A stretch of 36,272 bases of DNA from an uncultured Caldilineaceae bacterium (GTDB taxonomy: Bacteria > Chloroflexota > Anaerolineae > 4572-78 > J111). This document shows, piece by piece, positions 1 through 24,900 of this stretch (position 1 is its first letter; the number at the start of each line of letters is the position of its first letter). Under the pieces are notes generated by a model. The model was given only the letters and a program-made list of their open reading frames with translations, made no database searches and was not told the origin of the DNA. Both the position numbers and the translations under genes were made by a program. Location of the stretch: the NCBI GenBank assembly GCA_964638395.1, contig CAZWZZ010000001.1, forward strand, positions 17,450 through 53,721, written 5' to 3'.

Positions 1-665
1 AATTCATCTTTTTCCACGTGGCTAAAGTGGCCGGTCTCAGCTTGCGACAGGCTCTCAAGCCGTACACGCAGGAACCGGCACAGTTCAAAATCAAGCGCCC
101 TCCCCGGCACAGAAACGGCCGGCTCAACCCGCTGTATGAAATGTGGGAGTCGGCGTTGACCCACGCTACCGCCGGGGACGCCCGAAAAGCGCTGAATGGG
201 ACGTTCGATCAGTTCTACAAATTTGCCTTTGTCCGTAATCCGTGGGAGTGGCAGGTGTCGATGTACCATTTTTTGCTGAGAGAGATTGGCAATCCCCGGT
301 ATGAACAGGTGAAAGCGATGTCCGGTTTTGAGGCGTATCTGGAGTGGGTCATCGCTGCCAAAAATCCTTACCCGAAAGGGGCCACCAAGCTCCAAAGCGA
401 GATGCTGACCGATGAGGCGGGCCGGATTCTGGTGGATTTCGTGGGCCGGTATGAAAATCTGACCGTTGATTTTGCGTATGTCTGCCGGGTCTTGAATATC
501 AAAGCGTCGTTGCCCCATCTCAACCAGACGAAGCATCGGGATTATCGCACTTATTACAATGCCCGCACCCGGCGCTTGGTAGCCGATTATTTCCGGGCCG
601 ACATCGAGTTGTTTGGATACAGATTTGAGGGCCTGGCCACCGGAGCAAACTATCATGTTAATTGA
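1..665 (+). CDS. Sulfotransferase (family-2-like), 5' end cut by the window edge
   Basis: Frame is open from nt 3: FIFFHVAKVAGLSL resembles the PAPS 5'-phosphosulfate-binding loop (FxHxPKxxGxS). RNPWEWQVSMYHF resembles the 3'-phosphate-binding RxPxxRxxS region. The GTG at 18 in the ORF track is probably internal. Confidence 0.6.
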   Translation, partial: FIFFHVAKVAGLSLRQALKPYTQEPAQFKIKRPPRHRNGRLNPLYEMWESALTHATAGDARKALNGTFDQFYKFAFVRNPWEWQVSMYHFLLREIGNPRYEQVKAMSGFEAYLEWVIAAKNPYPKGATKLQSEMLTDEAGRILVDFVGRYENLTVDFAYVCRVLNIKASLPHLNQTKHRDYRTYYNARTRRLVADYFRADIELFGYRFEGLATGANYHVN

Positions 666-2808
666 GTTGACTATCACCGGCGCCCTGGCTTATGCCGGTC
701 TAAAATCGTATCTCAATCATCAACGTAAACCAAAATTGGTACAGATCATCCAGCCACCCTCCAAACAAAAAGGGTGGATCGAGAAAACAGAACAGACATT
801 GGCCGGATTACTCCCGTTTCAAAATAAGCAGCGGCAACAGTTGCAGGTGATTTCTGAAGCCCCCCTCGAGGTCAGTGAGGCGGAACAGGTCATTAACCGG
901 GATCTGAAACTTTCGCTGGTCACGTTAGGTTTGACGACAGCCGGTTTCCTCTTCAACCCTTTGTTGACCTGGATCAGTGTCCCCGGCTTGATCTATCTCC
1001 AAATACCGTTCCTCAAAACCGGCTACCGCGAACTGATCCGGGAAAAACGGGTCGGGCAGGGCGTGCTTGATAGCACCATCACGGTTGTGTTGTTATGGTT
1101 ACGTTATTTTTGGCTAACAGCCTCATTTTTGACCTTGATGAACTTGAGCTTGAAGTTGATTTTGAAAACTCAAGACAAGTCACGCCAAAAATTGGTCAAC
1201 ATTTTGGGGGATATGCCTCAATTTGTATGGGTGCTGCGGGGTGAGGTCGAGGTTCAAATCCCGCTGGAAAAATTAACCGTTGGCGACGTGGTCGTGATTA
1301 ATCCGGGTGAAATGATCCCCATAGATGGGCGGGTGGCCGCGGGGGCCGGCAGCGTCAACCAACACCGCCTGACCGGGGAAGCCGGCCTGGTGGAAAAGGA
1401 GGTGGGCGACAGCGTCTTGGCCACAACGATTTTGTTGTCGGGCCGACTGTTCATCCGGGTCGAAAAGGCCGGTAGTGAAACCGTCGCGGCTCAAATCGGA
1501 CAGATTTTGAATCAAACCGCCGATTATAAAAGTACGCTGCAAACCCGGGGAGAAATGATTGCCGATAAGGGCGCGTTACCCACGCTGGCCCTGAGCGCCG
1601 TCACATTGCCCATACTGGGACCGGTGGGGGCGGCCACCATTTTACTGTCCTCATTTGGTTATAACATGCGTATCTTTGCGCCCATTAGCGTCCTCAACTT
1701 CCTACAGATAGCGGCTGACCATAGCATTTTGGTGAAGGATGGTCGGGCTTTGGAAACATTGCGGGCAGTCGATACCATCGTGTTCGACAAAACCGGAACC
1801 TTGACCGAAGAGCAGCCTTATGTGGCTGCTGTTCACGCCTGTAGCGCCTACAATGAAAAAATAATTTTACAATATGCCGCTTCCGCCGAATACCGGCAAA
1901 CCCACCCGATTGCTTTGGCTATTTTAGACAAAGCTGCCCGCGACCATCTTGATTTATTCCCCGTCACCGAGGCTAATTACGACGTGGGCTACGGCTTGAA
2001 AGTCAACGTTGCCGGTAAATTAGTCTGCCTCGGCAGCAAGCGCTTTCTGCAACGGGAAAATATGACGATTCCCGATAGCCTGCTCACTCGTCAAATGTAT
2101 TGTGATGAATGTGGGCATACCCTGGTCTATGTGGCGCTGGATCGTGTGGTCATTGGGGCGCTGGAACTGCATCCCACCATTCGCCCGGAGGTCAGGCAGG
2201 TGGTGCGTGAGTTGCAACGGCAGGGTCTAAACGTCTACATCATCTCCGGCGATCATGAAAAGCCCACCCAACATCTGGCCCACAAGTTGGGTATCTCCCA
2301 CTATTTTGCCGAGGTATTGCCGGACGATAAAGCCCGGCTGGTCAGAGAATTACAGGAGGTAGGCCGGACGGTTTGTTTTGTGGGCGATGGCATCAATGAC
2401 GCCATTGCCCTCAAACAGGCCAATGTTTCTGTCTCCTTGCGGGGTGCCGCCTCGGTGGCCATTGATACGGCTCAAGTGATTTTGATGAGCCAAAACTTGA
2501 GCCATTTGTTGACTCTCCTAAAGCTGGCCCAAAAACTGGATAAAAATATGACCACCAATTTATGGTTGACCCTTATCCCCGGCGTCGTATGTGTCGGCGG
2601 AGTCTACCTGGTGCATCTGGGCGTAGCCGCGGCGCAGATGTTATTTTATGGGGGGCTGGGAGCCGGCGTCGCCAATGGGATGATGCCCTTATTAGAACAT
2701 AAGTGGACAGGGGATCAGGATACGATCAATAATAAGCTGCTCTCAGGGATTTATGATGAAAAATATAGGGACAAGCGCATCTTGAACAACAACACTACAT
2801 CGGATTAG
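655..2808 (+). CDS. Divergent P1B-like P-type ATPase, paralogue 1 (intact, 717 aa from ATG 655)
   Basis: LTGEAGLVEK (TGE), DKTGTLT phosphorylation site, AEYRQTHPIA (P1B-type HP motif), ISGDHE, VLPDDK, GDGINDAIAL hinge. No CxxC/His-rich N-terminus. The segment aligned to the TM CPx motif reads SSFGYNMRIFAP. ATG 655 (MLIELTITGALAYAGLKSY) matches the paralogue N-termini and overlaps the upstream stop by 11 nt; the track start at 613 is less likely. Confidence 0.85.
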   Translation: MLIELTITGALAYAGLKSYLNHQRKPKLVQIIQPPSKQKGWIEKTEQTLAGLLPFQNKQRQQLQVISEAPLEVSEAEQVINRDLKLSLVTLGLTTAGFLFNPLLTWISVPGLIYLQIPFLKTGYRELIREKRVGQGVLDSTITVVLLWLRYFWLTASFLTLMNLSLKLILKTQDKSRQKLVNILGDMPQFVWVLRGEVEVQIPLEKLTVGDVVVINPGEMIPIDGRVAAGAGSVNQHRLTGEAGLVEKEVGDSVLATTILLSGRLFIRVEKAGSETVAAQIGQILNQTADYKSTLQTRGEMIADKGALPTLALSAVTLPILGPVGAATILLSSFGYNMRIFAPISVLNFLQIAADHSILVKDGRALETLRAVDTIVFDKTGTLTEEQPYVAAVHACSAYNEKIILQYAASAEYRQTHPIALAILDKAARDHLDLFPVTEANYDVGYGLKVNVAGKLVCLGSKRFLQRENMTIPDSLLTRQMYCDECGHTLVYVALDRVVIGALELHPTIRPEVRQVVRELQRQGLNVYIISGDHEKPTQHLAHKLGISHYFAEVLPDDKARLVRELQEVGRTVCFVGDGINDAIALKQANVSVSLRGAASVAIDTAQVILMSQNLSHLLTLLKLAQKLDKNMTTNLWLTLIPGVVCVGGVYLVHLGVAAAQMLFYGGLGAGVANGMMPLLEHKWTGDQDTINNKLLSGIYDEKYRDKRILNNNTTSD

Positions 2809-2884
2809 GAAAGGAGCGGATAGAAAAGAGAGAAAATCCGCTGTTTTCTAAATCCGTTGTAGTGCTTACGAAGGAGATGTTTTT

Positions 2885-4258
2885 ATGTGTTCAATTTCAG
2901 GTTTTATCATAACTAATCCCAGAGCAGACCGGCGGCAAATTGCTACGGTCTATCAAACGATTTTGGCCCGAGGCGCGGAACGGGGCAAAGATAGCGCCGG
3001 TATTTTGACCTTGAACGGGCAAGGTCGGGTCAAGCGGCACGTTGAAATCACGCCTCAGCGGTATGATTTTGTGCAATCGGTGGTCGCGGATGACTGTCAG
3101 GTCTTAATTGCCAACAATCGGGCCGAACCAACGACTGAGTTTGTCCGGCATAAAACAGACGCCGACGCTCAACCCTTTGGCAACGGGGTCGTCTTTATCA
3201 GCCACAATGGCACCATTGCCAACGACCACGATTTACGCCAACAATTCGACATTCAAGTTGAGACCTGCATCGACTCGGCCGTTTGCCCCGAAGTGATCTA
3301 TCAATTGGGCGTCCGGGATGGCCTGGATGCGCTCAAAGGTTCATTTGCCCTGGCCATTGTCGATAAACGCCACCCGCAAAAACTATGGTTGGCCCGCAAC
3401 TACAAACCTTTATTTCTACAAGCCCGGCCTGAACTGGGCGCGATCTTCTTTGCCTCCCAAGCCGACCATCTTAGCGCGTCGAACGGCCTCCTCAGCCAAC
3501 TCCGGCAGCCGGCGGTGGTCTCTATGCCGCCTTATACTCTGTTGGAGCTGGACGGTCAAACCGGCCACATCAAAGAAGAAGCCATTGTCCCCCGGATTCG
3601 CAACAAAAAAGCCCTGATTATTTGCAGCGGTGGGTTGGACAGCACCACCTCAGCCAAATGGGCCCAACTGGAAGGGTATGAGATCACCCTGTTGCATTTC
3701 CGGTATGGCTGTCGGGCCGAAACACGGGAAATGGACGCCATCCGTAACATTGCCGAGGCGCTGGGTTGCGAGTATCGCTTTGAAAGTTTGGATTGGCTCA
3801 AGCAGTTGGGCGGCTCATCATTAACCGACACTTCCAAGGAAATCACCCGTAATGAAGCCGGGGCCGAATTTGCCCATGAGTGGGTGCCGGCTCGTAATTT
3901 GATTATGACCTCCCTGGCGGCCGGCTTGTGTGACCGGTATGGGTATGACACCCTGATTTTAGGCTTAAACCTGGAAGAGGGGGGCGCTTTCCCTGATAAC
4001 ACGGTTGAGTTTTATCGCACGTTAGATCACGTGTTGGATATTGGCACAACGAGCCGCCCCCGCTTGCTCAGTCCCCTGGCCAATATGGTGAAACATGAGA
4101 TTGTTTCTCTGGCTGTAGAAATAGAAGCCCCTATTCACCTGTCGTGGTCCTGTTATCATGGCCGGCACTATCATTGTGGGCAATGTGGGCCGTGCTATAT
4201 GCGCCGGACCGCGTTTAAAATCATCAACCAGCCTGATCTTATTACGTATGAAAATTGA
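2885..4258 (+). CDS. gat-queC: Gat-QueC: class-II (Ntn) glutamine amidotransferase fused to a QueC-like PP-loop ATPase
   Basis: N-terminus MCSISG (catalytic Cys2) with AQPF...HNGTIANDHDL typical of class-II GATases. C-terminal half has the PP-loop ALIICSGGLDSTT and the QueC Zn cluster SCYHGRHYHCGQCGPCYMR. AAGGAG Shine-Dalgarno motif 7 nt upstream of the ATG. Confidence 0.85.
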   Translation: MCSISGFIITNPRADRRQIATVYQTILARGAERGKDSAGILTLNGQGRVKRHVEITPQRYDFVQSVVADDCQVLIANNRAEPTTEFVRHKTDADAQPFGNGVVFISHNGTIANDHDLRQQFDIQVETCIDSAVCPEVIYQLGVRDGLDALKGSFALAIVDKRHPQKLWLARNYKPLFLQARPELGAIFFASQADHLSASNGLLSQLRQPAVVSMPPYTLLELDGQTGHIKEEAIVPRIRNKKALIICSGGLDSTTSAKWAQLEGYEITLLHFRYGCRAETREMDAIRNIAEALGCEYRFESLDWLKQLGGSSLTDTSKEITRNEAGAEFAHEWVPARNLIMTSLAAGLCDRYGYDTLILGLNLEEGGAFPDNTVEFYRTLDHVLDIGTTSRPRLLSPLANMVKHEIVSLAVEIEAPIHLSWSCYHGRHYHCGQCGPCYMRRTAFKIINQPDLITYEN

Positions 4259-4269
4259 GGAGGCGTCGA

Positions 4270-4698
4270 ATGTATACGATTATCACCAAAATCAGTTATG
4301 AATATGCCCATCGTCTCATTCATCATCAAGGTAAATGTCGCCATGTGCATGGTCACAGCGGTGAGGCCACTATCGAACTGGCGGCCGAGTCGCTGAATGA
4401 CAACGGTTTTGTGATGGATTTCGGCGAGGTTAAAAGCCCCTTGAAAACGTGGCTCAATGAACATTGGGATCACGCCTACCTGGCCAATGAGCAGGACCCG
4501 TTGTTGCCGACTTTGCAGGCGCAGGGCATGAAAACCTTCATCTTTCCGGCTGAACCATCGGCGGAAGTGATGGCCAAATGTCTATTCGAGCAGGTCTCGA
4601 ATCTGGAGTTGCGGGCCGGAGTCAAGGTGGTGCGGGTGACGGTCCAAGAGACTTGTACCGGCTTGGCCGTGTACGAGCCAACAGGAGGTAGAAGTTAA
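4270..4698 (+). CDS. queD: 6-carboxy-5,6,7,8-tetrahydropterin synthase
   Basis: KCRHVHGHSGE matches the CxxxHGH motif of QueD/PTPS T-fold enzymes, and the ~140-aa size fits. GAGGAGG SD precedes ATG 4270; the track start at 4255 overlaps that SD and is unlikely. Confidence 0.85.
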   Translation: MYTIITKISYEYAHRLIHHQGKCRHVHGHSGEATIELAAESLNDNGFVMDFGEVKSPLKTWLNEHWDHAYLANEQDPLLPTLQAQGMKTFIFPAEPSAEVMAKCLFEQVSNLELRAGVKVVRVTVQETCTGLAVYEPTGGRS

Positions 4699-4701: not shown

Positions 4702-5382
4702 ATGAAATATAGCGAAATCTTCTATACCCTACAAGGCGAAGGTAAATTGGTGGGCGTTCCGTCGGTCTTTTTTCGGACCAGCTATTGTAACCTGCGCTGC
4801 TGGTGGTGTGATACGCCTTATACCAGTTGGCAGCCCGAAAACAGGGACATCAGTGTGACCGACGCCTTTGCGGCGATTACCGAGTACCGGATCAAACATG
4901 TGGTCATTACCGGCGGGGAGCCGTTTATTCAGCCGGAGGCTTTAACCGAACTGTGTGACAAATTGGCCGACTATGGCTGCCACATAACCATCGAAACCAA
5001 TGCCACCATCTTTGCGCCGGTCAACGCGGATTTGATTTCGATGAGTCCCAAATTGGCCAACTCGACGCCTGAAAATGACCGGACTTGGACGGAACGGCAT
5101 GACCGGGAGCGCATTAAGGGAGATGTGATTTGTCAATTTTTGGATAGGTATGATTGTCAGGTCAAATTTGTGGTGGATAAGCCGGAGGATTTAGAAGAGA
5201 TCCAACAGTTGGTGAATGAGCTTAAGATCCCGCCTGAAACAGTGGTTTTGATGCCGCAAGGTCTTAAGCCGGAGGTTGTCAACCACAAAGAACAGTGGTT
5301 GGCTGAAATCTGTAAGGAGCAGGGATACCGCTACTCGCCGCGACTACATATCAATATTTGGGGGGATAAACGATGCACATGA
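4702..5382 (+). CDS. queE: 7-carboxy-7-deazaguanine synthase (radical SAM)
   Basis: EIFYTLQGEGKLVGVPSVFFRTSYCNLRCWWCDTPYT is the QueE N-terminal signature with its Cys cluster. Starts 4 nt after the queD stop. Confidence 0.85.
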   Translation: MKYSEIFYTLQGEGKLVGVPSVFFRTSYCNLRCWWCDTPYTSWQPENRDISVTDAFAAITEYRIKHVVITGGEPFIQPEALTELCDKLADYGCHITIETNATIFAPVNADLISMSPKLANSTPENDRTWTERHDRERIKGDVICQFLDRYDCQVKFVVDKPEDLEEIQQLVNELKIPPETVVLMPQGLKPEVVNHKEQWLAEICKEQGYRYSPRLHINIWGDKRCT

Positions 5383-5939
5383 AACCAAAACAATTTGATG
5401 GCGCCCTCATCGAGGAAGGCGTTAGCCTCATCTTAAAGGGCCTGGGCGAAGATTTGAACCGGGAAGGGTTACTCGACACCCCTAAACGGGTGGCCAAGAT
5501 GTATCGAGAAATATTTTGTGATAGTTCATTCAACGGTACGCAATTTTGCAATAGTGAGCAATACAACCAGATCGTTATGGTCCGCGATATTCCCTTTTAT
5601 TCGTTATGTGAACATCACATGTTGCCGTTTTTTGGCACAGCCACAGTTGGCTACATTCCCCAAAAAACGTACCTGGGGCTATCAAAATTAGCCCGGGTGG
5701 TTGATCTTTACAGCCGTCAACTGCAAGTACAGGAGCGCATGACGATGCAGATCGCCGATTGGTTGTGGGAACAGACGAACCCGGCCGGCGTTGGGGTTAT
5801 GGTCAAAGCCAGACATTTATGCATGGAGATGCGCGGCATTCAAAAGATTGGGAGTGAAACAGTCACTACCGCCACGTTGGGGGTATTTCGGACAGACAAG
5901 GAAATCGAAGATAGGTTTATGCGTTTCATAGGCGTATAG
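5373..5939 (+). CDS. folE: GTP cyclohydrolase I
   Basis: LLDTPKRVAKMY, SLCEHHMLPFFG, RQLQVQERMT and ARHLCMEMRG are classical FolE motifs. Overlaps the queE stop by 10 nt. Confidence 0.9.
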   Translation: MHMKPKQFDGALIEEGVSLILKGLGEDLNREGLLDTPKRVAKMYREIFCDSSFNGTQFCNSEQYNQIVMVRDIPFYSLCEHHMLPFFGTATVGYIPQKTYLGLSKLARVVDLYSRQLQVQERMTMQIADWLWEQTNPAGVGVMVKARHLCMEMRGIQKIGSETVTTATLGVFRTDKEIEDRFMRFIGV

Positions 5940-5953: not shown

Positions 5954-7165
5954 ATGTTTCAACTCGAAATACAACCGCCCGCCGAAATGAATAGCTGGCT
6001 CGACTCTATCAGGGCCGACCTGGGCCACTGTGACCCCCTTGAGACCTTCCGTCGCCGCTGGCAGACGGCCCACGAGCGGTTTGGGCGAGACCCGGTCGGC
6101 GAGTTGGCCTACCGGGATGCCTGGCTCTATTTTCAGGAGAAGGTTCATCCTCTGGTGCGCCGCAAGCTGACGGCGGAGAGCGAAGGGCGTCAGGCCGCCC
6201 GGAAGATCGCGGCCATTTTTGAGCCGGATGCCCCGCCCCAACGGATCAACCGGCAGATGGTGGCTCACATGCGGCAACAGCGTTTAGAGCCAACAAGACC
6301 TGGCAGCTTTTTGAAACCGACCAGGTCGGACCGGCCTGATTTCGACCGGCCTATTTTTATCGTTTCCGCGCCGAGGGCGGGTAGCAGCCTGTTGTTTGAA
6401 ACGCTGGCCCGCTTTGCCGAGGTGTGGACGATTGGGCAGGAAAGCCACGACATCGAGGCCGACCTGCCGGCCCTCCATCCGGCCACCCACGCCTACGCCT
6501 CCAACCGCTTGACCGCCGCCGAGGCCACACCGGCGGTCAGGCAAGCGATGGGGGATTGGTTTGGCCGCCGCTTGCAGGATAGAGAGGGCCGGTTGTATCA
6601 GGCGCTCCCGGCGGAAAAACGGCCGGCGGCGGTTCGCTTTCTGGAAAAGACGCCCAAGAACGCCCTGCGGATCCCCTTCCTGAAAGCCATTTTCCCCGAT
6701 GCTCGCTTCATCTACTTATACCGGGAACCGCGCCAGAACATCAGCAGCATGTTGGAAGGCTGGCGATCCCGCCGCTTTGTGGCCTATCGAGGCCTCCCCG
6801 GCTGGCCCTACAAAGAGTGGAGTTTTCTATTGGTACCGGGCTGGGAGCAGTGGTTCGATAAACCGCTGGTGGAGATTGCGGCCTATCAATGGCAAATTAC
6901 CAACGAGACGATCCGGGCCGATTTGCAACCATTGCCGACGGATTGCTGGCATCGGGTCGATTATGAGGCGTTAATCAACCGCCCCGCCGAAACCATCAAA
7001 CGGATCAGTGATTTTGCAGCGTTTAGCTGGACGGCTGAGATCGCAGAGCGGCTGGCCCGGCCGTTGCCGGTGTCACACATGGCCGTCTCGCCTCCCGCGG
7101 CGGATAAGTGGCGGAAGTATGAGGCGGAGATCAAGTCCGTTCTGCCCGTGATAAACGTCCAATAG
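5954..7165 (+). CDS. Sulfotransferase (P-loop PAPS-binding type) with a ~130-aa N-terminal extension
   Basis: IFIVSAPRAGSSLLFETL (5'-PSB loop, PRxGS[ST]) and RFLEKTPKNALRIPFL are typical of bacterial Sulfotransfer_3-like enzymes. The first ~130 aa have no motif I recognise. Confidence 0.7.
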   Translation: MFQLEIQPPAEMNSWLDSIRADLGHCDPLETFRRRWQTAHERFGRDPVGELAYRDAWLYFQEKVHPLVRRKLTAESEGRQAARKIAAIFEPDAPPQRINRQMVAHMRQQRLEPTRPGSFLKPTRSDRPDFDRPIFIVSAPRAGSSLLFETLARFAEVWTIGQESHDIEADLPALHPATHAYASNRLTAAEATPAVRQAMGDWFGRRLQDREGRLYQALPAEKRPAAVRFLEKTPKNALRIPFLKAIFPDARFIYLYREPRQNISSMLEGWRSRRFVAYRGLPGWPYKEWSFLLVPGWEQWFDKPLVEIAAYQWQITNETIRADLQPLPTDCWHRVDYEALINRPAETIKRISDFAAFSWTAEIAERLARPLPVSHMAVSPPAADKWRKYEAEIKSVLPVINVQ

Positions 7166-7228
7166 GTAGCAAGGAGATCATAAAAATTATGGTAGCCATT
7201 GATAATTTTGCAACAACGGAGGTTTTAT

Positions 7229-11871: not shown

Positions 11872-12042
11872 CCTCAACTCACACCAAAGAAATCGCCGTG
11901 ATTGGATTAGGCTGTCGATTTCCGGGTGGTGTGAAAGGGAGTTGCTAACTGTCGGAAAATTTCCGCTGTTGTGTACTACTGCTTATATATCAGGAAGAAA
12001 ACAAAATGAATGATGCAGTCCGCTTAGAAGATAATAAAATAA
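11794..12042 (+). repeat. 249-bp direct repeat, copy A (identical to 20201..20449)
   Basis: Base-by-base comparison of the two stretches shows no mismatch. The ~35 bp upstream are similar but not identical. Identity ends abruptly at 12042/20449. Confidence 0.95.
11868..11948 (+). pseudogene. Remnant of a type-I polyketide ketosynthase 5' end (copy A)
   Basis: TTG-initiated 26 codons (M)TSTHTKEIAVIGLGCRFPGGVKGSC*. EIAVIGLGCRFPGG matches the conserved N-terminal KS motif IAI[IV]G[ML][GS]CR[FL]PG[GA]. The TTG overlaps the ATPase stop (TTGA). Confidence 0.55.
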
Positions 12043-12830: not shown

Positions 12831-12867
12831 GTAGCTGAAACTACCGTTTTTGTTTAAGGAGATCAAT

Positions 12868-16665: not shown

Positions 16666-18156
16666 ATGGATCGAAAAATGAACAAACAAGACCAGATACC
16701 AATCTTAGAGAATTTGGTTCAATGTAGTAATTACGACGGCCTACAGTTTTATTTTCCCGGTCATAAGCAAGGTCGTTTTTTTTCAGACAAGCTAAAACAA
16801 ATCTTGGGTCAGCACACATTAGCCATCGATCTCCCTTCAATTGATGGAGAAACCGACAATACGTTTCATTCTGAGGGATGTATCAAGCTGGCCCAAGAAC
16901 TAACTGCCGAGTTGTACGGAGCGACTCACACTCGTTTTTTGGTTCATGGGGCCACAAGTGGAGTTATTACAGCCATTATGACGGCTGTTTCTCCCAACCA
17001 AGCCATCTTATTACCTCGTAATATTCATCGTTCCGTTGTATCAGGGCTAGTTCTTTCTGGATCCCGCCCAGTATACCTAATGCCCCAATCCCACCCTATG
17101 TCTATGTATAGTGCCTTATCTGTTTCGGTTGACCAAGTGAGGCAAGCATTTGAACAACATTCGGACCTGGGGGCAATGCTACTTACCCGACCAACCTACT
17201 ATGGTATTGCTAATAACAACATCAAAGAAATTGCTCAAATCTGCCACGACCATAATTGCCCTTTAATTGTTGACGAATCTCACGGGAGCCACCTTCAATT
17301 CTTACCAGAGGGCTATCCGACATCAGCACTGAAACTATTAGCTGATGTTGTCATTCAAAGCCCTCATAAAACACTCGGCTCCCTGAGTGGCACTGCCCAA
17401 CTTCATATTGGACACAATGCTTTAATTGATATAGACCGCTTGCAACTCATGCTGAATACCTTACAGAGTACTAGCCCCAACTATATTCTCCTGGCCTCCC
17501 TTGATGCAACTCGACACATGATGTGGCAACAAGGTCGCCACTTGTTTGCTAAAACAGTTAAACAGGTGGAAGCATTGCGAGACCAAATTGAGGCTATACA
17601 TGGGATGACATGTGCTCTCCTTGACCCAAGATTAGCCGAACAAGGGTATCAGGCTGATCCCTTGCGGTTGGTGGTCAACTTTAGTGAGATGAATCTGTCA
17701 GGGTTTACGGCCGCAGAAATTTTAGAAAAAGAATATGGGATCCGTTGGGAAATGCGTGATCACCATAACATTATCCTTGTACTTAGCCCTCAAGATGGTG
17801 TAGCAATGTATAAGCAATTGGTAGCGGCTTTACAGGCCTTGGCTAACAAATATTCTTCAACAGTCGAAACAAGTGCTCCTAAATATGATGTAATTGAAAC
17901 TATCCCCTTACCTATATTAGAACTTCTACCTAGAGAAGCCGTTTTTAGCCATAAAGCTGTGGTTCCCTTTAACCAAGCCCACGCTAAAATTTGTGGAGAG
18001 ATAGTGACTACTTACCCGCCAGGGATTCCAATTCTCTGTCCGGGCGAAGTAATATCAAAAGAGATTATTGAGTTTTGTCTATTTCTTAAAGCCCAACAAG
18101 CTGATATTTACGCTACGGATTCTTCACTAGAATCGTTTGTTGTTGTTGACCAATGA
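16666..18156 (+). CDS. Orn/Lys/Arg decarboxylase family (fold-type I PLP enzyme, SpeA/YaaO-like)
   Basis: FYFPGHKQG at the N-terminus and VIQSPHKTLGSLSGTA (S-x-HK PLP-lysine) are typical of the OKR_DC_1 major domain. The ~490-aa size fits. Confidence 0.75.
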   Translation: MDRKMNKQDQIPILENLVQCSNYDGLQFYFPGHKQGRFFSDKLKQILGQHTLAIDLPSIDGETDNTFHSEGCIKLAQELTAELYGATHTRFLVHGATSGVITAIMTAVSPNQAILLPRNIHRSVVSGLVLSGSRPVYLMPQSHPMSMYSALSVSVDQVRQAFEQHSDLGAMLLTRPTYYGIANNNIKEIAQICHDHNCPLIVDESHGSHLQFLPEGYPTSALKLLADVVIQSPHKTLGSLSGTAQLHIGHNALIDIDRLQLMLNTLQSTSPNYILLASLDATRHMMWQQGRHLFAKTVKQVEALRDQIEAIHGMTCALLDPRLAEQGYQADPLRLVVNFSEMNLSGFTAAEILEKEYGIRWEMRDHHNIILVLSPQDGVAMYKQLVAALQALANKYSSTVETSAPKYDVIETIPLPILELLPREAVFSHKAVVPFNQAHAKICGEIVTTYPPGIPILCPGEVISKEIIEFCLFLKAQQADIYATDSSLESFVVVDQ

Positions 18157-18169
18157 TGTAATAGGACAC

Positions 18170-20278
18170 ATGCCAGAAATGATCATTACAAAAATTCTTT
18201 TGATTGGTGGAGCCATTTACCTAAGCACAAAAACACACCTCTTTCACAAAAAAAATAATTTGGCGACTGTTTTAACGTCTCCTGATAAACCACAAACTCC
18301 CGTAAAACATACTGACACATTGACCACTTTGCTACCATCTCGATTTAGGGCATTATTAGAAAGTGATGAACAGACAGAAGAGGAGCAAATAGTCAACCAT
18401 TATCTTGTTGTTTCAGTTGCGGCAACAGGATTAGCGGCCCTGGGTGGTCTATTTTATGCTCCATTGTCGGTAGCTAGTTTGCCGTTGAGTATCTATACCT
18501 GTGTACCAATTTACCAAATTGCCTACCAAGCCTTGGTTAAAGAGGGGCGGCTCCGAGCAGAATTTGTCGATGCTATCGCGCTTACAGGAATATTTTTTAC
18601 GAGATATTACTTCGCTTTAGCTTTAGGCTCAGTCCTTTATTTTACGGGAAGTAAATTTATGTTGAGAACCGAGGATAACTCCCGTAAAAATCTGACCAAC
18701 CTATTTGGTGAGCAACCCCGTATGGTCTGGCGGGTCGTGGATGGGGTAGAGGTGGAAACGCCGTTTGAAGCCCTCAGACCGGGAGATGTTATTGTGGTCA
18801 ATGCCGGGGAGATGGTGCCGGTTGATGGTCGCATTGTGGAGGGGCATGGCTCACTCGATCAACATAAGCTGACCGGTGAATCCCAACCGGCGGAAAAGGG
18901 GCCGGCAGACCCAGTGTTTGCGGCTACCGTTCTGCTTGCCGGTCGGCTTTATATCCAAATCGAAAAGGCTGGCTCGGAAACGGTGGCGGCCCAAATTGGC
19001 GAGATATTGAATCGCACCACCGATTTCAAAAGCCTGATTGAAGCCCGTAGCCAGAAGTTGGCCGATCAGTTGGTTCTCCCGACTCTCGGTGTCGGTACTT
19101 TGGCCCTGTTAAGCCGGGGTCTGGTTGGTGGGGTGGCAGCCATCTCAGCCAACTTTTCCGACGTGTTCCGCGTCGTCGGCCCCTTGGGTATGCTGAACTT
19201 CCTGCAACTGGCAACCAAAGAGGGCATCTTGATCAAAGATGGCCGCTCGTTGGAACTGCTCAACCAAGTTGATACGGTGGTGTTCGACAAAACCGGCACC
19301 TTGACCCTAGAACAACTCCAAGTCAGCCAGATTCATGCTTGCGGCACCTTTTCCGAAGATGAACTGCTAACCTACGCTGCCACCGCCGAACATCGCCAAA
19401 GCCACCCCATCGCCAAAGCGATTCAACAGGCGGCCATCGAGCGCAACCTCACCTTGCCCCCACTCGATGAGGCCAGTTACGAAGTGGGTTACGGTCTGCG
19501 AGTGCGGATTGGGGCGCACCAGGTACGGGTCGGCAGTGCCAGATTTATGAATCTGGAGCAGATTACCTTACCGGAATCGATTCACCTGGCTCAAACCGAA
19601 GCCGCAGAAAACGGCCATTCGTTGGTCTACCTGGCCGTGGATGACGACTTAGCCGGGGCCATTGAACTCCAGCCGACCATCCGCCCGGAAGCCAAGCAGG
19701 TGATTGCCGACCTCAAGAAACGGGGCCTATCTCTCTATATCATCTCCGGCGACCACGAACAGCCGACCCGCACCCTGGCCGCCGCGTTGAGTATCGATCA
19801 CTATTTTGCCGAGGTTTTGCCGGAGGATAAGGCCAATTTAGTAGCGCAGTTGCAGCAAGCGGGGCGTTGTGTCTGTTTTGTGGGGGATGGCATCAACGAC
19901 TCGATAGCTCTGAAAAAAGCCAATGTTTCCATCTCGATTCGAGGCGCTTCGACCATCGCTACCGACACGGCCCAAATCGTTCTGATGAACCAGAGCTTGA
20001 GCCAACTCGACACGCTGTTTCAGATAGCCCACGACCTCGATACAAATATGAGGAGCAATCTGGTCATCACCTTTGGGCCGGGTCTGTTCTGTGTGGGCGG
20101 CGTTTTCTTTTTACATTTTGGCATCCTGAGCGCCGTCGCGCTTTACAACGTGTCTCTGGTCGCCGGCGTGACCAACGCCATGCTGCCCTGGCTACAGCGT
20201 CACCGGCTGCTGGCCGCGCCGGATAATTCTCAGCAAGTTTCACTTGTACCAAATAATGCGGAGAAAATCAAAATTTGA
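18170..20278 (+). CDS. Divergent P1B-like P-type ATPase, paralogue 4 (intact, 702 aa from ATG 18170)
   Basis: LTGESQPAEK, DKTGTLT, AEHRQSHPIA, ISGDHEQ, VLPEDK, GDGINDSIAL. The CPx position reads AISANFSDVFRVVGP. ATG 18170 (MPEMIITKILLIGGAIYLSTKTH) lies just after the upstream stop; the track start at 18137 is TTG inside the previous gene. Confidence 0.85.
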   Translation: MPEMIITKILLIGGAIYLSTKTHLFHKKNNLATVLTSPDKPQTPVKHTDTLTTLLPSRFRALLESDEQTEEEQIVNHYLVVSVAATGLAALGGLFYAPLSVASLPLSIYTCVPIYQIAYQALVKEGRLRAEFVDAIALTGIFFTRYYFALALGSVLYFTGSKFMLRTEDNSRKNLTNLFGEQPRMVWRVVDGVEVETPFEALRPGDVIVVNAGEMVPVDGRIVEGHGSLDQHKLTGESQPAEKGPADPVFAATVLLAGRLYIQIEKAGSETVAAQIGEILNRTTDFKSLIEARSQKLADQLVLPTLGVGTLALLSRGLVGGVAAISANFSDVFRVVGPLGMLNFLQLATKEGILIKDGRSLELLNQVDTVVFDKTGTLTLEQLQVSQIHACGTFSEDELLTYAATAEHRQSHPIAKAIQQAAIERNLTLPPLDEASYEVGYGLRVRIGAHQVRVGSARFMNLEQITLPESIHLAQTEAAENGHSLVYLAVDDDLAGAIELQPTIRPEAKQVIADLKKRGLSLYIISGDHEQPTRTLAAALSIDHYFAEVLPEDKANLVAQLQQAGRCVCFVGDGINDSIALKKANVSISIRGASTIATDTAQIVLMNQSLSQLDTLFQIAHDLDTNMRSNLVITFGPGLFCVGGVFFLHFGILSAVALYNVSLVAGVTNAMLPWLQRHRLLAAPDNSQQVSLVPNNAEKIKI

Positions 20279-20449
20279 CCTCAACTCACACCAAAGAAAT
20301 CGCCGTGATTGGATTAGGCTGTCGATTTCCGGGTGGTGTGAAAGGGAGTTGCTAACTGTCGGAAAATTTCCGCTGTTGTGTACTACTGCTTATATATCAG
20401 GAAGAAAACAAAATGAATGATGCAGTCCGCTTAGAAGATAATAAAATAA
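20201..20449 (+). repeat. 249-bp direct repeat, copy B (identical to 11794..12042)
   Basis: Covers the last 26 codons of ATPase paralogue 4, the KS remnant, an intergenic stretch and 12 codons of MNDAVRLEDNKI. Confidence 0.95.
20275..20355 (+). pseudogene. Remnant of a type-I polyketide ketosynthase 5' end (copy B)
   Basis: Same 81 nt as 11868..11948. TTG overlaps the ATPase TGA stop. (M)TSTHTKEIAVIGLGCRFPGGVKGSC*. Confidence 0.55.
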
Positions 20450-20458
20450 TTGTGATTT

Positions 20459-20540
20459 TGTCATTGCGAGCGTAGCGAAGCAATCCCCCCGTGCGGGCCG
20501 AAGATTGCTTCGTCGCCGATCACGGCTCTTCGCAATGACA
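20459..20540. mobile_element. MITE-like nested palindromic element
   Basis: Outer arms TGTCATTGCGA (20459-20469) / TCGCAATGACA (20530-20540). Inner arms CGAAGCAATC / GATTGCTTCG. Sits 10 nt past the point where repeat copy B diverges from copy A. Confidence 0.5.
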
Positions 20541-20742
20541 ATAACCGCGAAAAACTTAATTTACGCTGTATTAATGACCCGTCCTCAGCTAATTAGACGT
20601 TTTTTGGACGGTTAGATTTTATTAATAATACGGGTTGTTCTAAAAACAACTCATCTTGGGCTTTATGGAGTATTATGTTTGTCAATAATCAGTCAGGGGC
20701 AGCAAAAATACTTTTCTATGATCGTCACGGAAGCGATATATT

Positions 20743-22914
20743 ATGGCCTTTTTGTCTCTAAGCGTCATTGGCGGAGCCGCTTTGGCGGGTGCCGTCTTAA
20801 AATTTCAAAACAGAAAAAAATCATTACTGATCGAATGTTTGTCCGAAGAACGGTATAGCAAATCAGAAACCGGCTTACTCGGCGGACGACTGCCTAGCTC
20901 GATAGAGATAGATGATAAACTCCAACGATTTTTTCAGAAACGGATTGATCCGTTGTTTGGAGATAATCGTAAGGAGCAGCTTAAAACTCTAAGTGACAGC
21001 CAGCTATTAGAGATCAGTCAAACCGAAAAAGAGGTTAATCGCTTTTTCCCGTTATCTGTGGCGGCGTTGGGGCTAAGTGTGATGGGGGCGTTTCTCTTCA
21101 ATCCTTTGCTCATCGGAGCTTCAGCTATTGGTATCTTTTGTACCGTACAAATTTGTCAACAAGGCTACGAAGAATGGCGAACCGAAAAACGGCTTAAAAT
21201 CATCCACCTGACCGGTTTGTATTGTACCGGCGTGTGGTTAGGCGGTTTTTATGTGGCCGGTTCGTTAGCTATGGTCCTGCACACGATCAGCGAAAAACTG
21301 GTAATCATCACCCAAAATCGCTCTCGAAAAAGTTTCATTAATGTTTTTGGGCAACACCCTAAGTCGGTATGGGTCCTCTGTGATGGGGTTGAAGTTCAAA
21401 TACCGTTTGAGCGCTTAAAAAAAGGAGACATTTTAGTCCTGCATGCCGGTGAAACGATTCCCTCTGATGGAACAATCATTCAGGGGCAAGCCCTGGTTGA
21501 CCAACATAAGTTAACCGGCGAAGCCCAACCTGCCGAGAAAACAGTGGCCGACCCTGTCTTGGCCTCGACCGTCCTCCTGGCCGGAACGATTCAAGTTCGG
21601 GTCGAAAAAGCCGGGTCTGAAACAATCGCGGCTCAAATCGGCCAAATTCTCAACAATACCGCCGATTATCAAGCTGTGTTAGAAGCCGAAGCTTTGGAAA
21701 TCTGCAATAAGACTGTCTTACCTTCCCTGGCTTTAAGCATGTTAGTTTTCCCTGTGTTTGGCTTACAACGGGCCGTTGCCATTCTGGGCGCTAACTATGG
21801 GAGCAATTTATCTATTTTAGGCCCAATGAGTATGTTGAACTTCTTGAACATTGCTTCGGAAAAAGGGATTTTGATAAAAGACGGGCGCGTTTTAGAACGG
21901 TTAAAAACGATAGACACCGTTGTCTTTGACAAAACCGGAACCTTAACTGAAGAAAAATCGACCATTACCCAAATTTACAGTTACAGCGATATGAGTCCGC
22001 AGGAGATACTAACGTTGGCCGCCGCAGCCGAGTATAAGCAAACCCATCCGATTGCCAAAGCTATTCTTGAGGCGGCTGAGACAAATAACCTGGAGATTCC
22101 TCCGATTGATCAGGCCCATTACGAAATCGGCTATGGCATCAAAGTCCAATGTTTGGAACAACGGATTTGGGTGGGGAGCTATCGGTTTATGACCCTGGAA
22201 GGCTTAACCATACCGCCAGAGTTAGAAGCCCAACAAACGTTTTGTAAAACGCAAGGCCATCCACTGGTTCTGGTAGGAGTTGATGGCCAGGTGGTCGGTG
22301 CGATTGAATTGGAGCCGGCTATTCGGCCAGAAACTAAAGAGCTGGTGGCCAATCTTCGGGCACGTAATCTGTCGCTCTATATTATCTCGGGCGACCACGA
22401 AGAACCAACCCGTAATCTGGCTCAAACGCTTGGCCTGGATGGTTATTTTGCCAACACCTTGCCCCAACAAAAAGAGGAGTTAATCCAACAGTTGCAACAA
22501 ACGGGCCATAAAGTCTGTTTTGTCGGAGATGGGATCAATGACGCCTTAGCCTTAAAGCGGGCTGAGGTCTCTATCTCATTACGGGGCGCGACCAGCGCGG
22601 CCACCGATACGGCCCAAATTGTATTTATGGATGGCAGCCTGAAGCAATTGCCTGAATTATTTCACCTTGCTGAGTCCTTAAACCAAAATAATCGAACAAA
22701 TATTGCCACAATTGCGGCGGCCAGTGCCCTGTGTGGGGTCGGGATTCTATATTTTGGCTTCGGGATTACCTTTGCCGAGGTATTATTTTGCTCCAGTGTC
22801 GTGGTCGGCTTAGGGGTGACCACCAAGCCGCTACTTGACCATAGAAAGAGATTAGAAGCGGGTGACCAGACGCTTTATCTGGCTGAGAAGACATACCGGG
22901 AGTTAAAAATTTGA
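20743..22914 (+). CDS. Divergent P1B-like P-type ATPase, paralogue 5 (intact, 723 aa)
   Basis: LTGEAQPAEK, DKTGTLT, AEYKQTHPIA, ISGDHEE, TLPQQK, GDGINDALAL. The CPx position reads ILGANYGSNLSILGP. The N-terminal helix LSVIGGAALAGAVLKFQNRKK matches the family pattern. Confidence 0.85.
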   Translation: MAFLSLSVIGGAALAGAVLKFQNRKKSLLIECLSEERYSKSETGLLGGRLPSSIEIDDKLQRFFQKRIDPLFGDNRKEQLKTLSDSQLLEISQTEKEVNRFFPLSVAALGLSVMGAFLFNPLLIGASAIGIFCTVQICQQGYEEWRTEKRLKIIHLTGLYCTGVWLGGFYVAGSLAMVLHTISEKLVIITQNRSRKSFINVFGQHPKSVWVLCDGVEVQIPFERLKKGDILVLHAGETIPSDGTIIQGQALVDQHKLTGEAQPAEKTVADPVLASTVLLAGTIQVRVEKAGSETIAAQIGQILNNTADYQAVLEAEALEICNKTVLPSLALSMLVFPVFGLQRAVAILGANYGSNLSILGPMSMLNFLNIASEKGILIKDGRVLERLKTIDTVVFDKTGTLTEEKSTITQIYSYSDMSPQEILTLAAAAEYKQTHPIAKAILEAAETNNLEIPPIDQAHYEIGYGIKVQCLEQRIWVGSYRFMTLEGLTIPPELEAQQTFCKTQGHPLVLVGVDGQVVGAIELEPAIRPETKELVANLRARNLSLYIISGDHEEPTRNLAQTLGLDGYFANTLPQQKEELIQQLQQTGHKVCFVGDGINDALALKRAEVSISLRGATSAATDTAQIVFMDGSLKQLPELFHLAESLNQNNRTNIATIAAASALCGVGILYFGFGITFAEVLFCSSVVVGLGVTTKPLLDHRKRLEAGDQTLYLAEKTYRELKI

Positions 22915-24038
22915 CAGTACTCACGTCCAATCCCATCCGGGTTGACCAACAAAAAATCTATCGCGTCGCCCAGGCTCTGTTACAAGTTCCCACCCCGGAG
23001 AATAGCCAACCGTGGAAAATCATCATCGATGATAACCGGCTTAAGATTTTTCACTCCTCTGAACGGGCTAAACTGGCCACATTTCCTGATGATTTATCGG
23101 TCATGGGGCTGGGGATGTTGCTGGAAACGTTAGAGTTAGCTTGTAGTCAGGAGGCGTTGGCCGTCCATACAACCCTGTTCCTGGAAGATCGGTCTGATGC
23201 TTCTCCCTGGCTAAAGGCGGAACTCAACCCTGCCCAGACAACGCCCGACCCTTTGAGCCTGGCTATCTATCTACGCCACACCGACCGCCGTAAATATGTC
23301 GGGGGAACGCTCAACGATCCAGTCTTTCAAGAAGTTCATCGTCAGGCCGGGACCAATCAGGGGGCGAATATCTATTTTATCGACCGGTACCCTGACGAAT
23401 ATTTACAGCTCTTGAAAAACGCCGACCAGAAAGTAATGGAATGGGACGAGTTACGCCAGGATTTAATGCGTTGGACCCGCTTCACCGATAAACAGATCGC
23501 CGCCTCCAGAGACGGTATGTCCTGGCGAAGTTTTTTACGCGGGCCGGAAAACTGGGTCTATTATCTTCGTTCCCGAGTCTGGTGGGCTGCGACTCATTTC
23601 GATTGGTATCCAGATTGGTTATATCGTTTCGAGACAACCTTTTTCGATGACTCCTCAGAGTTATCCCCCATAAGTTATGACGATGGGGCCGGCATCGGTT
23701 GTATTACCACGGCCTCAGATGATAGTAAAGATTTAATAGCCGCGGGGCGGCTTTCTTTGAGGGTCTGGCTCTTATTTAATCTAACCGGTTATGGGTTTCA
23801 ACCCCTGACCAACCTGACCAGCACCATCTATCCCTTTCACCAGGGTCGATTGAAGATACCGTCCCACCTTATTCCTTTGGTGGCTAGCGGGTACGAAACA
23901 TTACAACAAGTCTTTGGCTTCTCTAACCAGGAACTCCCCATTTTTTGCTTCCGGGTTGGGGTCGCTATGGGGAAATATCCAAACAACGCCAGAGCTTTAC
24001 GACGTGATGATAGACACATCATCTACAAAAAATCGTGA
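22911..24038 (+). CDS. Nitroreductase-superfamily protein, Acg-like
   Basis: VPTPENSQPWKIIIDDNRLKIF resembles the APSxHNxQPW motif of nitroreductase/Acg-type FMN proteins. The ~375-aa size fits a double-domain Acg-like protein. The TTG start overlaps the ATPase stop (TTGA). Confidence 0.5.
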   Translation: MTVLTSNPIRVDQQKIYRVAQALLQVPTPENSQPWKIIIDDNRLKIFHSSERAKLATFPDDLSVMGLGMLLETLELACSQEALAVHTTLFLEDRSDASPWLKAELNPAQTTPDPLSLAIYLRHTDRRKYVGGTLNDPVFQEVHRQAGTNQGANIYFIDRYPDEYLQLLKNADQKVMEWDELRQDLMRWTRFTDKQIAASRDGMSWRSFLRGPENWVYYLRSRVWWAATHFDWYPDWLYRFETTFFDDSSELSPISYDDGAGIGCITTASDDSKDLIAAGRLSLRVWLLFNLTGYGFQPLTNLTSTIYPFHQGRLKIPSHLIPLVASGYETLQQVFGFSNQELPIFCFRVGVAMGKYPNNARALRRDDRHIIYKKS

Positions 24039-24900
24039 ATCGACGTTTCTGAACAGATATAGGAGAAGAAAAATCGTAGCCGCAAACAAACAACAGCTAA
24101 AATATGGTGCATTTTATATTCAGGACAACTTAGCTTGCTGGAATGGAGATCCGGACGTTCAGATAAAGCTAACCCAAAGCCCCTCAGTGAGCTGTCAATG
24201 GGAGGGGGTTTGGAACCCTTGTCACAGGCCATTACAAACAGAATATCGGGTTGCCATGAGTGGCCTTTGTATCTGGAGTAAATATGATTGTCTGTTACAG
24301 TTTAAGCCAAGAAGCAAAGGCAACCCGGGGGCCATACGCTCGTTGAGTAACCCGAAAGACCGGGCGGATTTGTTCAAACGATTGGAGAAAGGGTATGAAG
24401 TTGAACAGATTATTGTCGCCAATAATCCTTTCGGACTGTATCAGTCCAAATTAATTACCTGGCAAGCTGATACTGTACAACGATTTAAAATTAGCAAACT
24501 GTATTATACCCTGCCGATTGAAGAATATGCGGAGGTTATTAGGTTCTTTGAAAAATTTCTACCTCAACGGTTTGTCGAACAATTAGTTGAGATATTAAAT
24601 AGCCATCACGATCAATTAGAGGAAAAAATCCGTCGAGAAATGGAAGCCAACGTCTGCTTTGTCCATCCCCTCCGCTATGATAGTCAGTTGTCTGTCATAG
24701 AATCTTACACCTGGCCCTATCAAAATTTTGATGACATCGAGTTAGGCATCGAAGAGATGGAGGAAATACGGATTCCCTATCAGGTTCTACAAACCGGCTC
24801 AACCGTTCCGCCCATCTTGTTGGGGATGCTGGGGACACCCTGTCCTTATTATGTCCGCCGCAATCTGCACGAGGATGATTACATAAAAATTATTCCTTGA
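24007..24900 (+). CDS. Hypothetical protein (297 aa), no recognisable motif
   Basis: Long ORF in the same orientation. ATG 24007 overlaps the upstream gene by 32 nt, whereas the track start at 23914 would overlap by 125 nt. Confidence 0.5.
   Translation: MIDTSSTKNRESTFLNRYRRRKIVAANKQQLKYGAFYIQDNLACWNGDPDVQIKLTQSPSVSCQWEGVWNPCHRPLQTEYRVAMSGLCIWSKYDCLLQFKPRSKGNPGAIRSLSNPKDRADLFKRLEKGYEVEQIIVANNPFGLYQSKLITWQADTVQRFKISKLYYTLPIEEYAEVIRFFEKFLPQRFVEQLVEILNSHHDQLEEKIRREMEANVCFVHPLRYDSQLSVIESYTWPYQNFDDIELGIEEMEEIRIPYQVLQTGSTVPPILLGMLGTPCPYYVRRNLHEDDYIKIIP

Follow-up and report, generated by a model that had tools for sequence, protein, structure and literature searches.

A candidate mosaic of organic-cation synthesis modules and P-type ATPases lacking metal-site motifs in an uncultured Caldilineaceae bacterium

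The stretch of DNA analysed here (the window; 36,272 nt, positions 17,450 to 53,721 of contig CAZWZZ010000001.1, assembly GCA_964638395.1) comes from an uncultured Caldilineaceae bacterium and encodes a 7-deazaguanine synthesis cassette, three pyridoxal 5′-phosphate (PLP) decarboxylases, two sulfotransferases and a set of P-type ATPase paralogues. All substantial open reading frames (ORFs) lie on the + strand (coordinates are window positions; domains were assigned by Pfam and NCBIfam). Gaps between genes are mostly −20 to +76 nt, with three wider ones of 217, 665 and 464 nt, and three gene pairs that involve an ATPase overlap: the ATPase gene ATPa starts 11 nt inside the sulfotransferase gene ST2, ATPb starts 20 nt inside the Orn/Lys/Arg decarboxylase gene OKR-DC, and an Acg-like gene starts 4 nt inside ATPc. 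A shortened ATPase paralogue, ATPtr, begins 24 nt after the tri-domain gene MT-MT-DC. The sister contig L001 (loci from other contigs carry the prefix L) extends the view by 7 kb upstream of window nt 1, where an O-methyltransferase, a 1300-aa ketosynthase–acyltransferase–acyl carrier protein–thioesterase (KS-AT-ACP-TE) polyketide synthase (PKS) and an NMT1-type ABC transporter are encoded on the same strand, the PKS ending 2.8 kb before the window. A first prediction from sequence alone (the original prediction) had confined this tight same-strand run to positions 1–24900; the run itself was borne out, but the locus continues upstream with the PKS and downstream with a triple solute-binding lipoprotein. 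It is best read as a specialised-metabolism island encoded on one strand and at least 36 kb long, comprising window nt 1–28683 and about 7 kb upstream. A promoter and terminator scan of 10–29 kb returned counts equal to shuffled expectation, so that operon boundaries could not be set, and an Rfam scan of the window gave no match.

The P-type ATPases, which derive from the P1B group, are the organising feature of the island. Three are full-length (ATPa, 655–2808; ATPb, 18137–20278; ATPc, 20743–22914; all + strand, assigned by Pfam/NCBIfam and motifs) and are joined by ATPtr (10505–11788, +, 427 aa) and by an N-terminal fragment (31982–32866, +, 294 aa) that ends inside the actuator (A) domain. 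The P-type core is kept, with TGE(S/A) (TGEA in ATPa), DKTGT, HP and GDGIND. The full-length proteins score 385–415 against TIGR01525 (cutoff 346) and match the CopA/ZntA structures 3j08, 3rfu and 4umv at about 1e-57, the P1B pumps CopA and ZntA thus being their nearest structural and sequence relatives. In contrast to these pumps, the window ATPases lack the CPx motif (the CPC of CopA aligns to NFS, SFG, NYG or NYS), the copper ligands YN (M5) and MxxSS (M6), as judged by alignment inspection, and any HMA Pfam domain; they also have biosynthetic neighbours, and their M4 motif differs from paralogue to paralogue, reading SSFGYNMRIFAP in ATPa, ANFSDVFRVVGP in ATPb and ANYGSNLSILGP in ATPc. The fragment at 31982–32866 is nearest (50%) to another clade, the 'GPT' M4 type of loci L086 and L112.

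Loss of the metal site extends across the family. ATPb has 5,355 matches at E ≤ 1e-30 among scored candidates, and 117 of its top 120 homologues carry DKTGT. None of these 117 has [CS]P[CHS] in the M4 window, and none has a CxxC in the first 150 residues, although not all P1B ATPases possess such a metal-binding domain. The M4 consensus of the 117 is S-A-N-F/Y-S-E-V-x-R...P-L-G-M-L-N-F-L, and M4 varies between clades as it does between the window paralogues. Where family members are labelled, they belong to Beggiatoa, Thioploca, Thioflexithrix, Entotheonella, Chloroflexi and Caldilineaceae. For organic polycations as the cargo of a P-type ATPase, the precedent would be the P5B ATPases (ATP13A2/3), the eukaryotic polyamine pumps; these are of a different lineage, and the similarity of the window ATPases to them is of the generic P-type kind (TIGR01657, 97–114 bits against a cutoff of 618).

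In other genomes, family ATPases recurrently sit beside biosynthetic genes, with PKS or non-ribosomal peptide synthetase (NRPS) genes in about 7 of 15 ATPase-anchored loci. Locus L065 encodes a PKS (AT-DH-ACP-AONS), two proteins of no known family, an ATPase (66% identity), a homologue of the window sulfotransferase ST3 (64%) and, directly after it, a homologue of the triple solute-binding protein (79%). Loci L067, L068 and L072, like L069–L071, combine a PKS, methyltransferases, an ATPase overlapped by a PRMT5-like methyltransferase, an acyl-AMP ligase, an ACP, a HemN-like radical S-adenosylmethionine (SAM) protein, an ST2 homologue (56–60%), a sulfatase and a reductase. In L074, a KS-AT-ACP-TE PKS that shares 55% full-length identity with the one upstream of the window is followed by a sulfatase, a 2-oxoglutarate (2OG) oxygenase and an ATPase, with a SpeA-like arginine decarboxylase 15 nt on. 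L083 carries an NRPS with a TE, a beta-lactamase fold protein, an ATPase and a radical SAM protein, and L087 has PKS DH and KR-ACP-C proteins and then an ATPase. The decarboxylases of the window recur in the same company. L075 reads ATPase, Acg (75%), a protein of no known family (60%), SET-decarboxylase (87%), ATPase, methyltransferase; L132 (GCA_054920075.1, from a sibling project) and L134 hold SET-decarboxylase homologues (84% and 82%) with a family ATPase on each side; and in L217 a family ATPase is followed 17 nt later by a 63% homologue of MT-MT-DC. Given these neighbourhoods, modules of the window each recur alone beside a family ATPase.

Within the island, the deazaguanine cassette begins 76 nt past the ATPa gene and ends 14 nt before the ST3 gene, on the same strand. 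It comprises Gat-QueC (2885–4258, +; PF06508 2e-58 plus GATase_7; TIGR00364 168 against a cutoff of 150), the 6-carboxytetrahydropterin synthase QueD/PTPS (4255–4698, called start 4270, +; PF01242 2.9e-29), the radical-SAM 7-carboxy-7-deazaguanine synthase QueE (4702–5382, +) and the GTP cyclohydrolase I FolE (5373–5939, +; PF01227 3e-67; NF006826 225 against a cutoff of 162). Curated cutoffs are passed by FolE and the QueC domain. QueD reaches 78 bits under an NCBIfam cutoff of 89 and keeps its CRHVHGH (CxxxHGH) motif; the best NCBIfam matches of QueE are all to QueE families, each under its cutoff, and the signature EIFYTLQGEG...CNLRCWWCDT is kept. In Gat-QueC, the N-terminus MCSISG with the catalytic Cys2, the SGGLDS motif and the zinc cysteines C-x8-C-x2-C-x2-C are all in place. 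The preQ0 pathway is therefore complete with its catalytic motifs, as the original prediction had read from the ORFs, and with the Gat cysteine intact ammonia is the expected nucleophile for the QueC chemistry.

Most Gat-QueC homologues are archaeal or viral, with 35–45% identity to the window protein (55% over one partial segment). The closest relatives come from bacterial metagenome-assembled genomes (MAGs), at 67% and 60% identity, and form a small bacterial clade. With the Gat-QueC of Crenarchaeota and phage 9g, which serve archaeosine in tRNA and dG+ in DNA, respectively, the window protein shares the two-domain build, Cys2, the PP-loop and the zinc cysteines, and with the phage proteins also the accompanying FolE, QueD and QueE. 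Unlike them, it belongs to the bacterial clade, is set between pump and sulfotransferase genes and has no transglycosylase nearby: neither the window ORFs nor the 7 kb upstream, a place where the original prediction had advised looking, yielded a TGT/DpdA-family domain, and PADLOC returned only generic QueC and radical-SAM matches, without components of the Dpd or Qat systems. In published work, Gat-QueC gives rise to archaeosine in tRNA or DNA, its action on the free base being left open (PMC6884629). A genome-wide Gat-QueC scan found no locus with the window's other genes. The closest homologue with readable context (60%), in a Bacteroidetes MAG (L010, 4257–13560), is part of a run of genes on one strand that also includes four GT2 glycosyltransferases, a GH3 protein, an APH-type kinase, a PIG-L deacetylase and a Vut_1 (PF02592) transporter, and no TGT/DpdA stands beside it. 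Vut_1 is a vitamin-uptake family that we take to be that of the preQ0 importer YhhQ, and L010 may encode a glycosylated deazaguanine pathway fed by salvage. A dedicated GTP-to-preQ0 gene copy within a secondary-metabolism locus, as in the window, is also a feature of the toyocamycin/sangivamycin, huimycin, dapiramicin and echiguanine clusters, which carry a phosphoribosyl- or glycosyltransferase; we know of no such 7-deazapurine natural-product cluster with a Gat-QueC, PLP decarboxylases, sulfotransferases or P-type ATPases.

The three PLP decarboxylases are of three folds, as originally proposed, and two of them are fused to methyltransferase domains; the proposal that both fusion partners are of the N-methyltransferase type did not hold, one being a BurB-like S-methyltransferase. 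This is the SET domain of SET-DC (12850–14592, +, 580 aa), which is joined to an Orn/DAP/Arg-fold (fold III) decarboxylase (PF02784, PF00278). The SET domain (residues 13–161) matches the sequence of the BurB crystal structure (PDB 9l4t) at 5.6e-47 over 149 aa, with about half of the aligned residues identical by eye; the idea that it is a lysine N-methyltransferase look-alike was rejected on this match. Of the BurB contact residues (PMC12542666), H72, T73, H93 and R133 are kept and R42C, A44S and H138L differ; R70K, V130I and M132S are changed at positions that make main-chain contacts. BurB methylates methionine to S-methylmethionine (SMM) (PMC12542666, PMC7496086), and SMM is decarboxylated in bacteria by BurI and SMMDC, enzymes that resemble DAP decarboxylases (PMC11464771). 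The decarboxylase domain of SET-DC is lysA-like (202 bits, under the cutoff of 298), keeps the PLP lysine in YAIKAN and was compared with BurI by family description rather than sequence against sequence. Fused and split homologues both exist, the split pair of L215 and L216 consisting of a 156-aa SET protein (49% identity) 9 nt before a decarboxylase (61%). Based on the BurB match, the BurI/SMMDC-type partner and this split pair, SET-DC is predicted to convert methionine via SMM to 3-dimethylsulfoniopropylamine, the amine related to dimethylsulfoniopropionate (DMSP-amine). BurB/BurI of Burkholderia thailandensis and MSMT/SMMDC of Streptomyces mobaraensis likewise pair a SET S-methyltransferase with a DAP-decarboxylase-like enzyme; the window differs from both in having a single fused 580-aa protein, with CPx-less ATPases and not a thiotemplate assembly line as its neighbours. 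The split pair (L215, 7522–9260; L216, 5175–6913) has membrane H+-pyrophosphatase genes on both sides plus a soluble pyrophosphatase, again an ion-pump context.

The second fusion, MT-MT-DC (7199–10480, called start 7229, +), consists of two methyltransferase domains, a histamine-N-methyltransferase-like one followed by a class I one, and a group II PLP decarboxylase domain nearest to tryptophan, DOPA and tyrosine decarboxylases (4obu, 2e-67). HVDAAY and DPHK (Lys900) are kept. The relatives of the first methyltransferase and decarboxylase domains suggest that an N-methylated biogenic amine may be its product. The protein is rare (15 matches). A 34% relative in L006 (1365–7783) has a Castor/Pollux-type RCK channel gene on one side and, on the other, a protein with a faint match to a ligand-gated-channel ligand-binding domain, which hints at an amine signal/receptor pairing. 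The third decarboxylase, OKR-DC (16666–18156, +), is a short-form Orn/Lys/Arg fold-I enzyme (OKR_DC_1, PF01276 1.5e-61; PDB 2x3l 6e-33) that keeps the SPHK PLP motif.

Both sulfotransferases named in the original prediction are of the 3′-phosphoadenosine 5′-phosphosulfate (PAPS) type. ST2 (Sulfotransfer_2, 1–665, +; in-window ORF 18–665; PF03567 4.5e-10) truly starts 22 nt before the window, its full gene encoding 228 aa in L001, and carries HVAKVAG and RNPWE; ST3 (Sulfotransfer_3, 5954–7165, +; PF13469 1.3e-24) carries SAPRAGSS, EKTPKN and REPRQN, these being the PAPS-binding motifs by inspection. As described above, homologues of ST2 occur in the ATPase/PKS loci L067–L072, and that of ST3 lies between the ATPase and triple solute-binding genes of L065. 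The solute-binding lipoprotein of the window (25042–28683, +, 1213 aa) has the lipobox LLAGC and three tandem MalE/CUT1-like domains, an uncommon architecture, with no ABC permease beside the gene. Because its 79% homologue follows the ATPase–ST3 pair in L065, it probably belongs to the conserved core. A role as a PotD-like polyamine binder was considered and rejected, the domains resembling MalE/CUT1 sugar binders.

Among the remaining genes, the Acg/Rv3131-like FMN-binding nitroreductase-fold protein (22911–24038, +; NF047509 6e-31, under cutoff) and the DUF3326 protein (15258–16526, +; PF11805 1.4e-79) were both correctly recognised at the outset; a single-sequence AlphaFold model of the latter reached a pLDDT of 31 and was unusable. 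The Acg-like gene is followed by one for a protein of about 286 aa (24040–24900, +) without a Pfam family, whose rare family has 69 representatives among 1.84 billion sequences. Homologues of the two are neighbours in L075 too, where the Acg follows an ATPase; a 619-aa relative of the ~286-aa protein, checked for fusion, carries no Acg domain. A proposed ketosynthase remnant was not recovered: tblastn with the adjacent PKS found no match in the window, and no Pfam domain was detected in 23914–24900 or 12006–12830. Beyond the lipoprotein gene lie an MscS gene (28831–30156, +), a gene for a ParA-like ATPase, the ATPase fragment described above, a 255-aa ORF (33053–33820) that is unrelated to this fragment and has a hydrophobic N-terminal segment by inspection, and a pentapeptide/PBP_like_2 gene (33931–36201). 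The largest family returned by the repeat finder (34445–35079) consists of 15-nt periodic pentapeptide-repeat codons, i.e. ordinary coding repeats and not a regulatory array.

The ORFs are maintained. The sister assembly of L001 (GCA_054920155.1) is 99.6% identical to the window over the 14,258 nt shared, and the 52 differences comprise 40 synonymous, 11 non-synonymous and one intergenic change, indicating that the ORFs are under purifying selection. At 90% identity, clusters of the window proteins contain 1–6 members, the lineage being rarely sampled. The pentapeptide protein, DUF3326 and a relative labelled Waterburya suggested a cyanobacterial source; the assembly record places the DNA in Caldilineaceae. 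The full gene set was seen in this lineage only; among the loci examined elsewhere, the que cassette, decarboxylases and sulfotransferases were never co-located, an outcome that the original prediction had counted against itself.

Several features mark the island as a mosaic: a bimodal GC content at third codon positions (GC3), two truncated ATPase copies, a recombination scar and a homologous locus without the inserts. GC3 is low (0.37–0.43) in MT-MT-DC, SET-DC, the DUF3326 gene and OKR-DC, and high (0.56–0.74) in ST2, ATPa, the que genes, ST3, ATPtr, ATPb and the triple solute-binding gene, a split that suggests a lower-GC donor for the decarboxylase modules. The ATPase paralogues had been foreseen, but one of them is internally deleted: ATPtr breaks about 45 aa past DKTGT and is missing its N-domain, the greater part of the P-domain and the final transmembrane helices. 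It is about 28% diverged from ATPb up to nt 11754 and 98% identical thereafter, within a 289-nt direct repeat (11754–12042, +; 98% identical to 20161–20449) that covers the last 118 nt of ATPb plus 171 nt downstream and marks the recombination event behind the truncation. The two strains differ most densely in ATPtr (18 in 1284 nt; 14 synonymous and 4 non-synonymous), where gene conversion among the paralogues could be responsible. The following 274-aa ORF (12006–12830, +), without a Pfam family, is probably a chimeric rearrangement remnant, since it opens with ~60 residues similar to the N-terminal part of a fold-III decarboxylase (NCBIfam DokD residues 18–58, E = 7e-4) and the rest belongs to no family. 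L065 shows the compact order ATPase–ST3–solute-binding gene, which other modules interrupt in the window. In L134, fragments of IS1, ISL3 and DDE_Tnp_4 transposases lie within the SET-DC/ATPase locus (2281–4362, 6980–7267), consistent with mobile modules.

We consider the chances about even that the island is a mosaic of organic-cation synthesis modules, each paired with a P-type ATPase of one family. It would have been built by accretion of small modules around a core that recurs in other genomes, namely the two sulfotransferases, the upstream KS-AT-ACP-TE PKS and the extracytoplasmic triple solute-binding lipoprotein. One module (FolE, QueD, QueE and Gat-QueC) would make a free 7-deazaguanine base from GTP, either preQ0 or its amidine, the cationic archaeosine base; a second, the BurB/BurI-type fusion, would S-methylate methionine and decarboxylate the product to DMSP-amine, which is both a sulfonium and an ammonium compound; a third, MT-MT-DC, would supply an N-methylated arylalkylamine, and a fourth, the short OKR-DC, a diamine or agmatine. 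The CPx-less ATPases would translocate these organic products, for export or sequestration, in place of heavy metals, as the lost metal sites, the paralogue-specific M4 motifs and the conserved adjacency lead us to infer. That the modules act largely independently of each other is, like each product and each ATPase substrate, our interpretation of gene content and context. A more tentative extension, for which we see a smaller chance, is that the CPx-less P1B branch as a whole is a widespread bacterial family that uses ATP to pump organic 'onium' metabolites, whether ammonium, sulfonium or amidinium compounds or amphiphiles built on them, with paralogues each coupled to their own synthesis enzymes. 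The island would then hold four synthase–pump pairs, including one for a novel free archaeosine-base/preQ0 metabolite and one with the fused DMSP-amine synthase.

A number of observations weigh against this mosaic of pump-coupled modules. An inorganic hard cation could be bound just as well by the conserved Glu/Asn of M4. Genes for ATPases are common, and the ATPase-anchored loci L073, L076, L078–L082 and L085 have no obvious biosynthetic neighbours; L132, L134 and L217 were found via decarboxylase queries, so the linkage is shown for those enzymes and not for the whole family. A SET-DC homologue of Novosphingobium (52%) has no ATPase nearby, and distant MT-MT-DC relatives (34% and 56%) occur in unrelated contexts, again without an ATPase nearby. 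Two SAM-contact residues of BurB are altered in the window SET domain (R42C and H138L), and no BurD/BurE (aminotransferase, aldehyde dehydrogenase) was assigned in the window, L075, L132 or L134; the end product of SET-DC may be the amine or a derivative of it, and not DMSP. Finally, the co-directional tight packing fits a single operon with one pathway just as well, and the PKS thioesterase or one of the four proteins without an assigned function could join the building blocks.

One alternative is that the island is one biosynthetic cluster with one hybrid product, a deazaguanine base linked to one or more amines, with or without a polyketide chain, N/S-methylated and sulfated, for which the ATPases would be exporters or resistance determinants. 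The same-strand genes overlap or nearly abut, the thioesterase of the PKS about 3 kb upstream might in principle release onto an amine, a ligase may be among the four proteins of no assigned function, in L074 a PKS of this type occurs together with an ATPase and a decarboxylase, and DMSP has a precedent as a polyketide building block in Burkholderia (PMC7496086). Yet no condensation, ATP-grasp or amide-synthetase domain was recognised in the window proteins, the intact Gat domain implies that the QueC chemistry should use ammonia, the modules occur separately and never together in other genomes, the GC3 of the decarboxylase genes is sharply unlike that of the que, sulfotransferase and ATPase genes, and four or five paralogous pumps for one compound are hard to justify. 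We therefore regard a single product as rather unlikely, and the narrower form originally put forward, in which a deazaguanine carboxylate or amidine carries one sulfated and/or methylated amine, is not supported, on the same evidence: the lack of a recognised ligase or condensation enzyme, the intact Gat cysteine, the GC3 split and the modules that recur separately beside ATPases.

The island might also serve the response to osmotic or ionic stress. Its sulfonium amine, its methylated amines and its sulfate esters would then act as compatible solutes (cf. DMSP, betaines, choline-O-sulfate), which MscS (28831–30156) would release on down-shock. The substrate of the ATPases would be Na+, K+ or another hard cation, a site for which the conserved acidic M4 residue resembles. 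BurB/BurI logic is that of DMSP synthesis (PMC12542666), an OpuAC glycine-betaine-binding gene lies near SET-DC in L132, and membrane pyrophosphatases flank the split SET and decarboxylase pair in L215. Family ATPases nevertheless reside within PKS/NRPS clusters elsewhere, a 7-deazaguanine base is not known as an osmolyte, the BurD/BurE-type genes that would complete DMSP are missing from the loci named above, and an aromatic-type decarboxylase is odd for a compatible solute, which makes this reading, to our minds, a long way from probable. Alternatively, the que cassette might serve nucleic-acid modification, with a transglycosylase gene at another site in the genome accounting for archaeosine or preQ0 in tRNA or DNA and with the neighbours of the cassette being unrelated metabolic genes. 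All characterised Gat-QueC proteins act in tRNA or phage DNA modification (PMC6884629), and the homologues are mostly archaeal or viral. The context makes such a role unlikely, and as an account of the locus we rate it as improbable: neither TGT/DpdA in the window or 7 kb upstream nor Dpd/Qat components were detected, the cassette is wedged on one strand between an ATPase gene (76 nt) and a sulfotransferase gene (14 nt), and its nearest relatives form a bacterial clade (60–67%), the context in L010 being one of glycosyltransferases and a Vut_1 transporter. Most doubtful, indeed very improbable in our view, is a decaying recombination hotspot in which the juxtaposition is accidental and several genes are non-functional. 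It would explain the two truncated ATPases, the chimeric 274-aa ORF, the 289-nt scar, the mixed GC3 and the transposases in L134, but is at odds with the 40:11 ratio of synonymous to non-synonymous differences between strains, with the intactness of every catalytic motif checked and with the recurrence of the same pairings on unrelated contigs.

The enzyme families of the island are all known already. Nothing on the gene combination or the ATPase subfamily was found in the literature searched, which is no proof of novelty; the TCDB families of 'functionally uncharacterised P-type ATPases' were outside the search. The locus matches its first description as uncharacterised. What appears to be undescribed is, foremost, a metal-site-less P1B branch recurrently coupled to amine-forming and PKS genes, together with the BurB/BurI fusion and the Gat-QueC cassette without a transglycosylase. 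The last of these points to a small-molecule role for archaeosine-type bases. The SET-DC fusion would be a one-gene marker of SMM/DMSP-amine production, which bears on organosulfur cycling in organisms without known DMSP genes. If the proposed coupling is true, a testable non-metal function would be at hand for a large unstudied branch of P-type ATPases, with thousands of sequences from Beggiatoa/Thioploca, Entotheonella, Chloroflexi and cyanobacterial-like contigs, and these CPx-less ATPases would provide a new genomic marker for specialised-metabolism loci.

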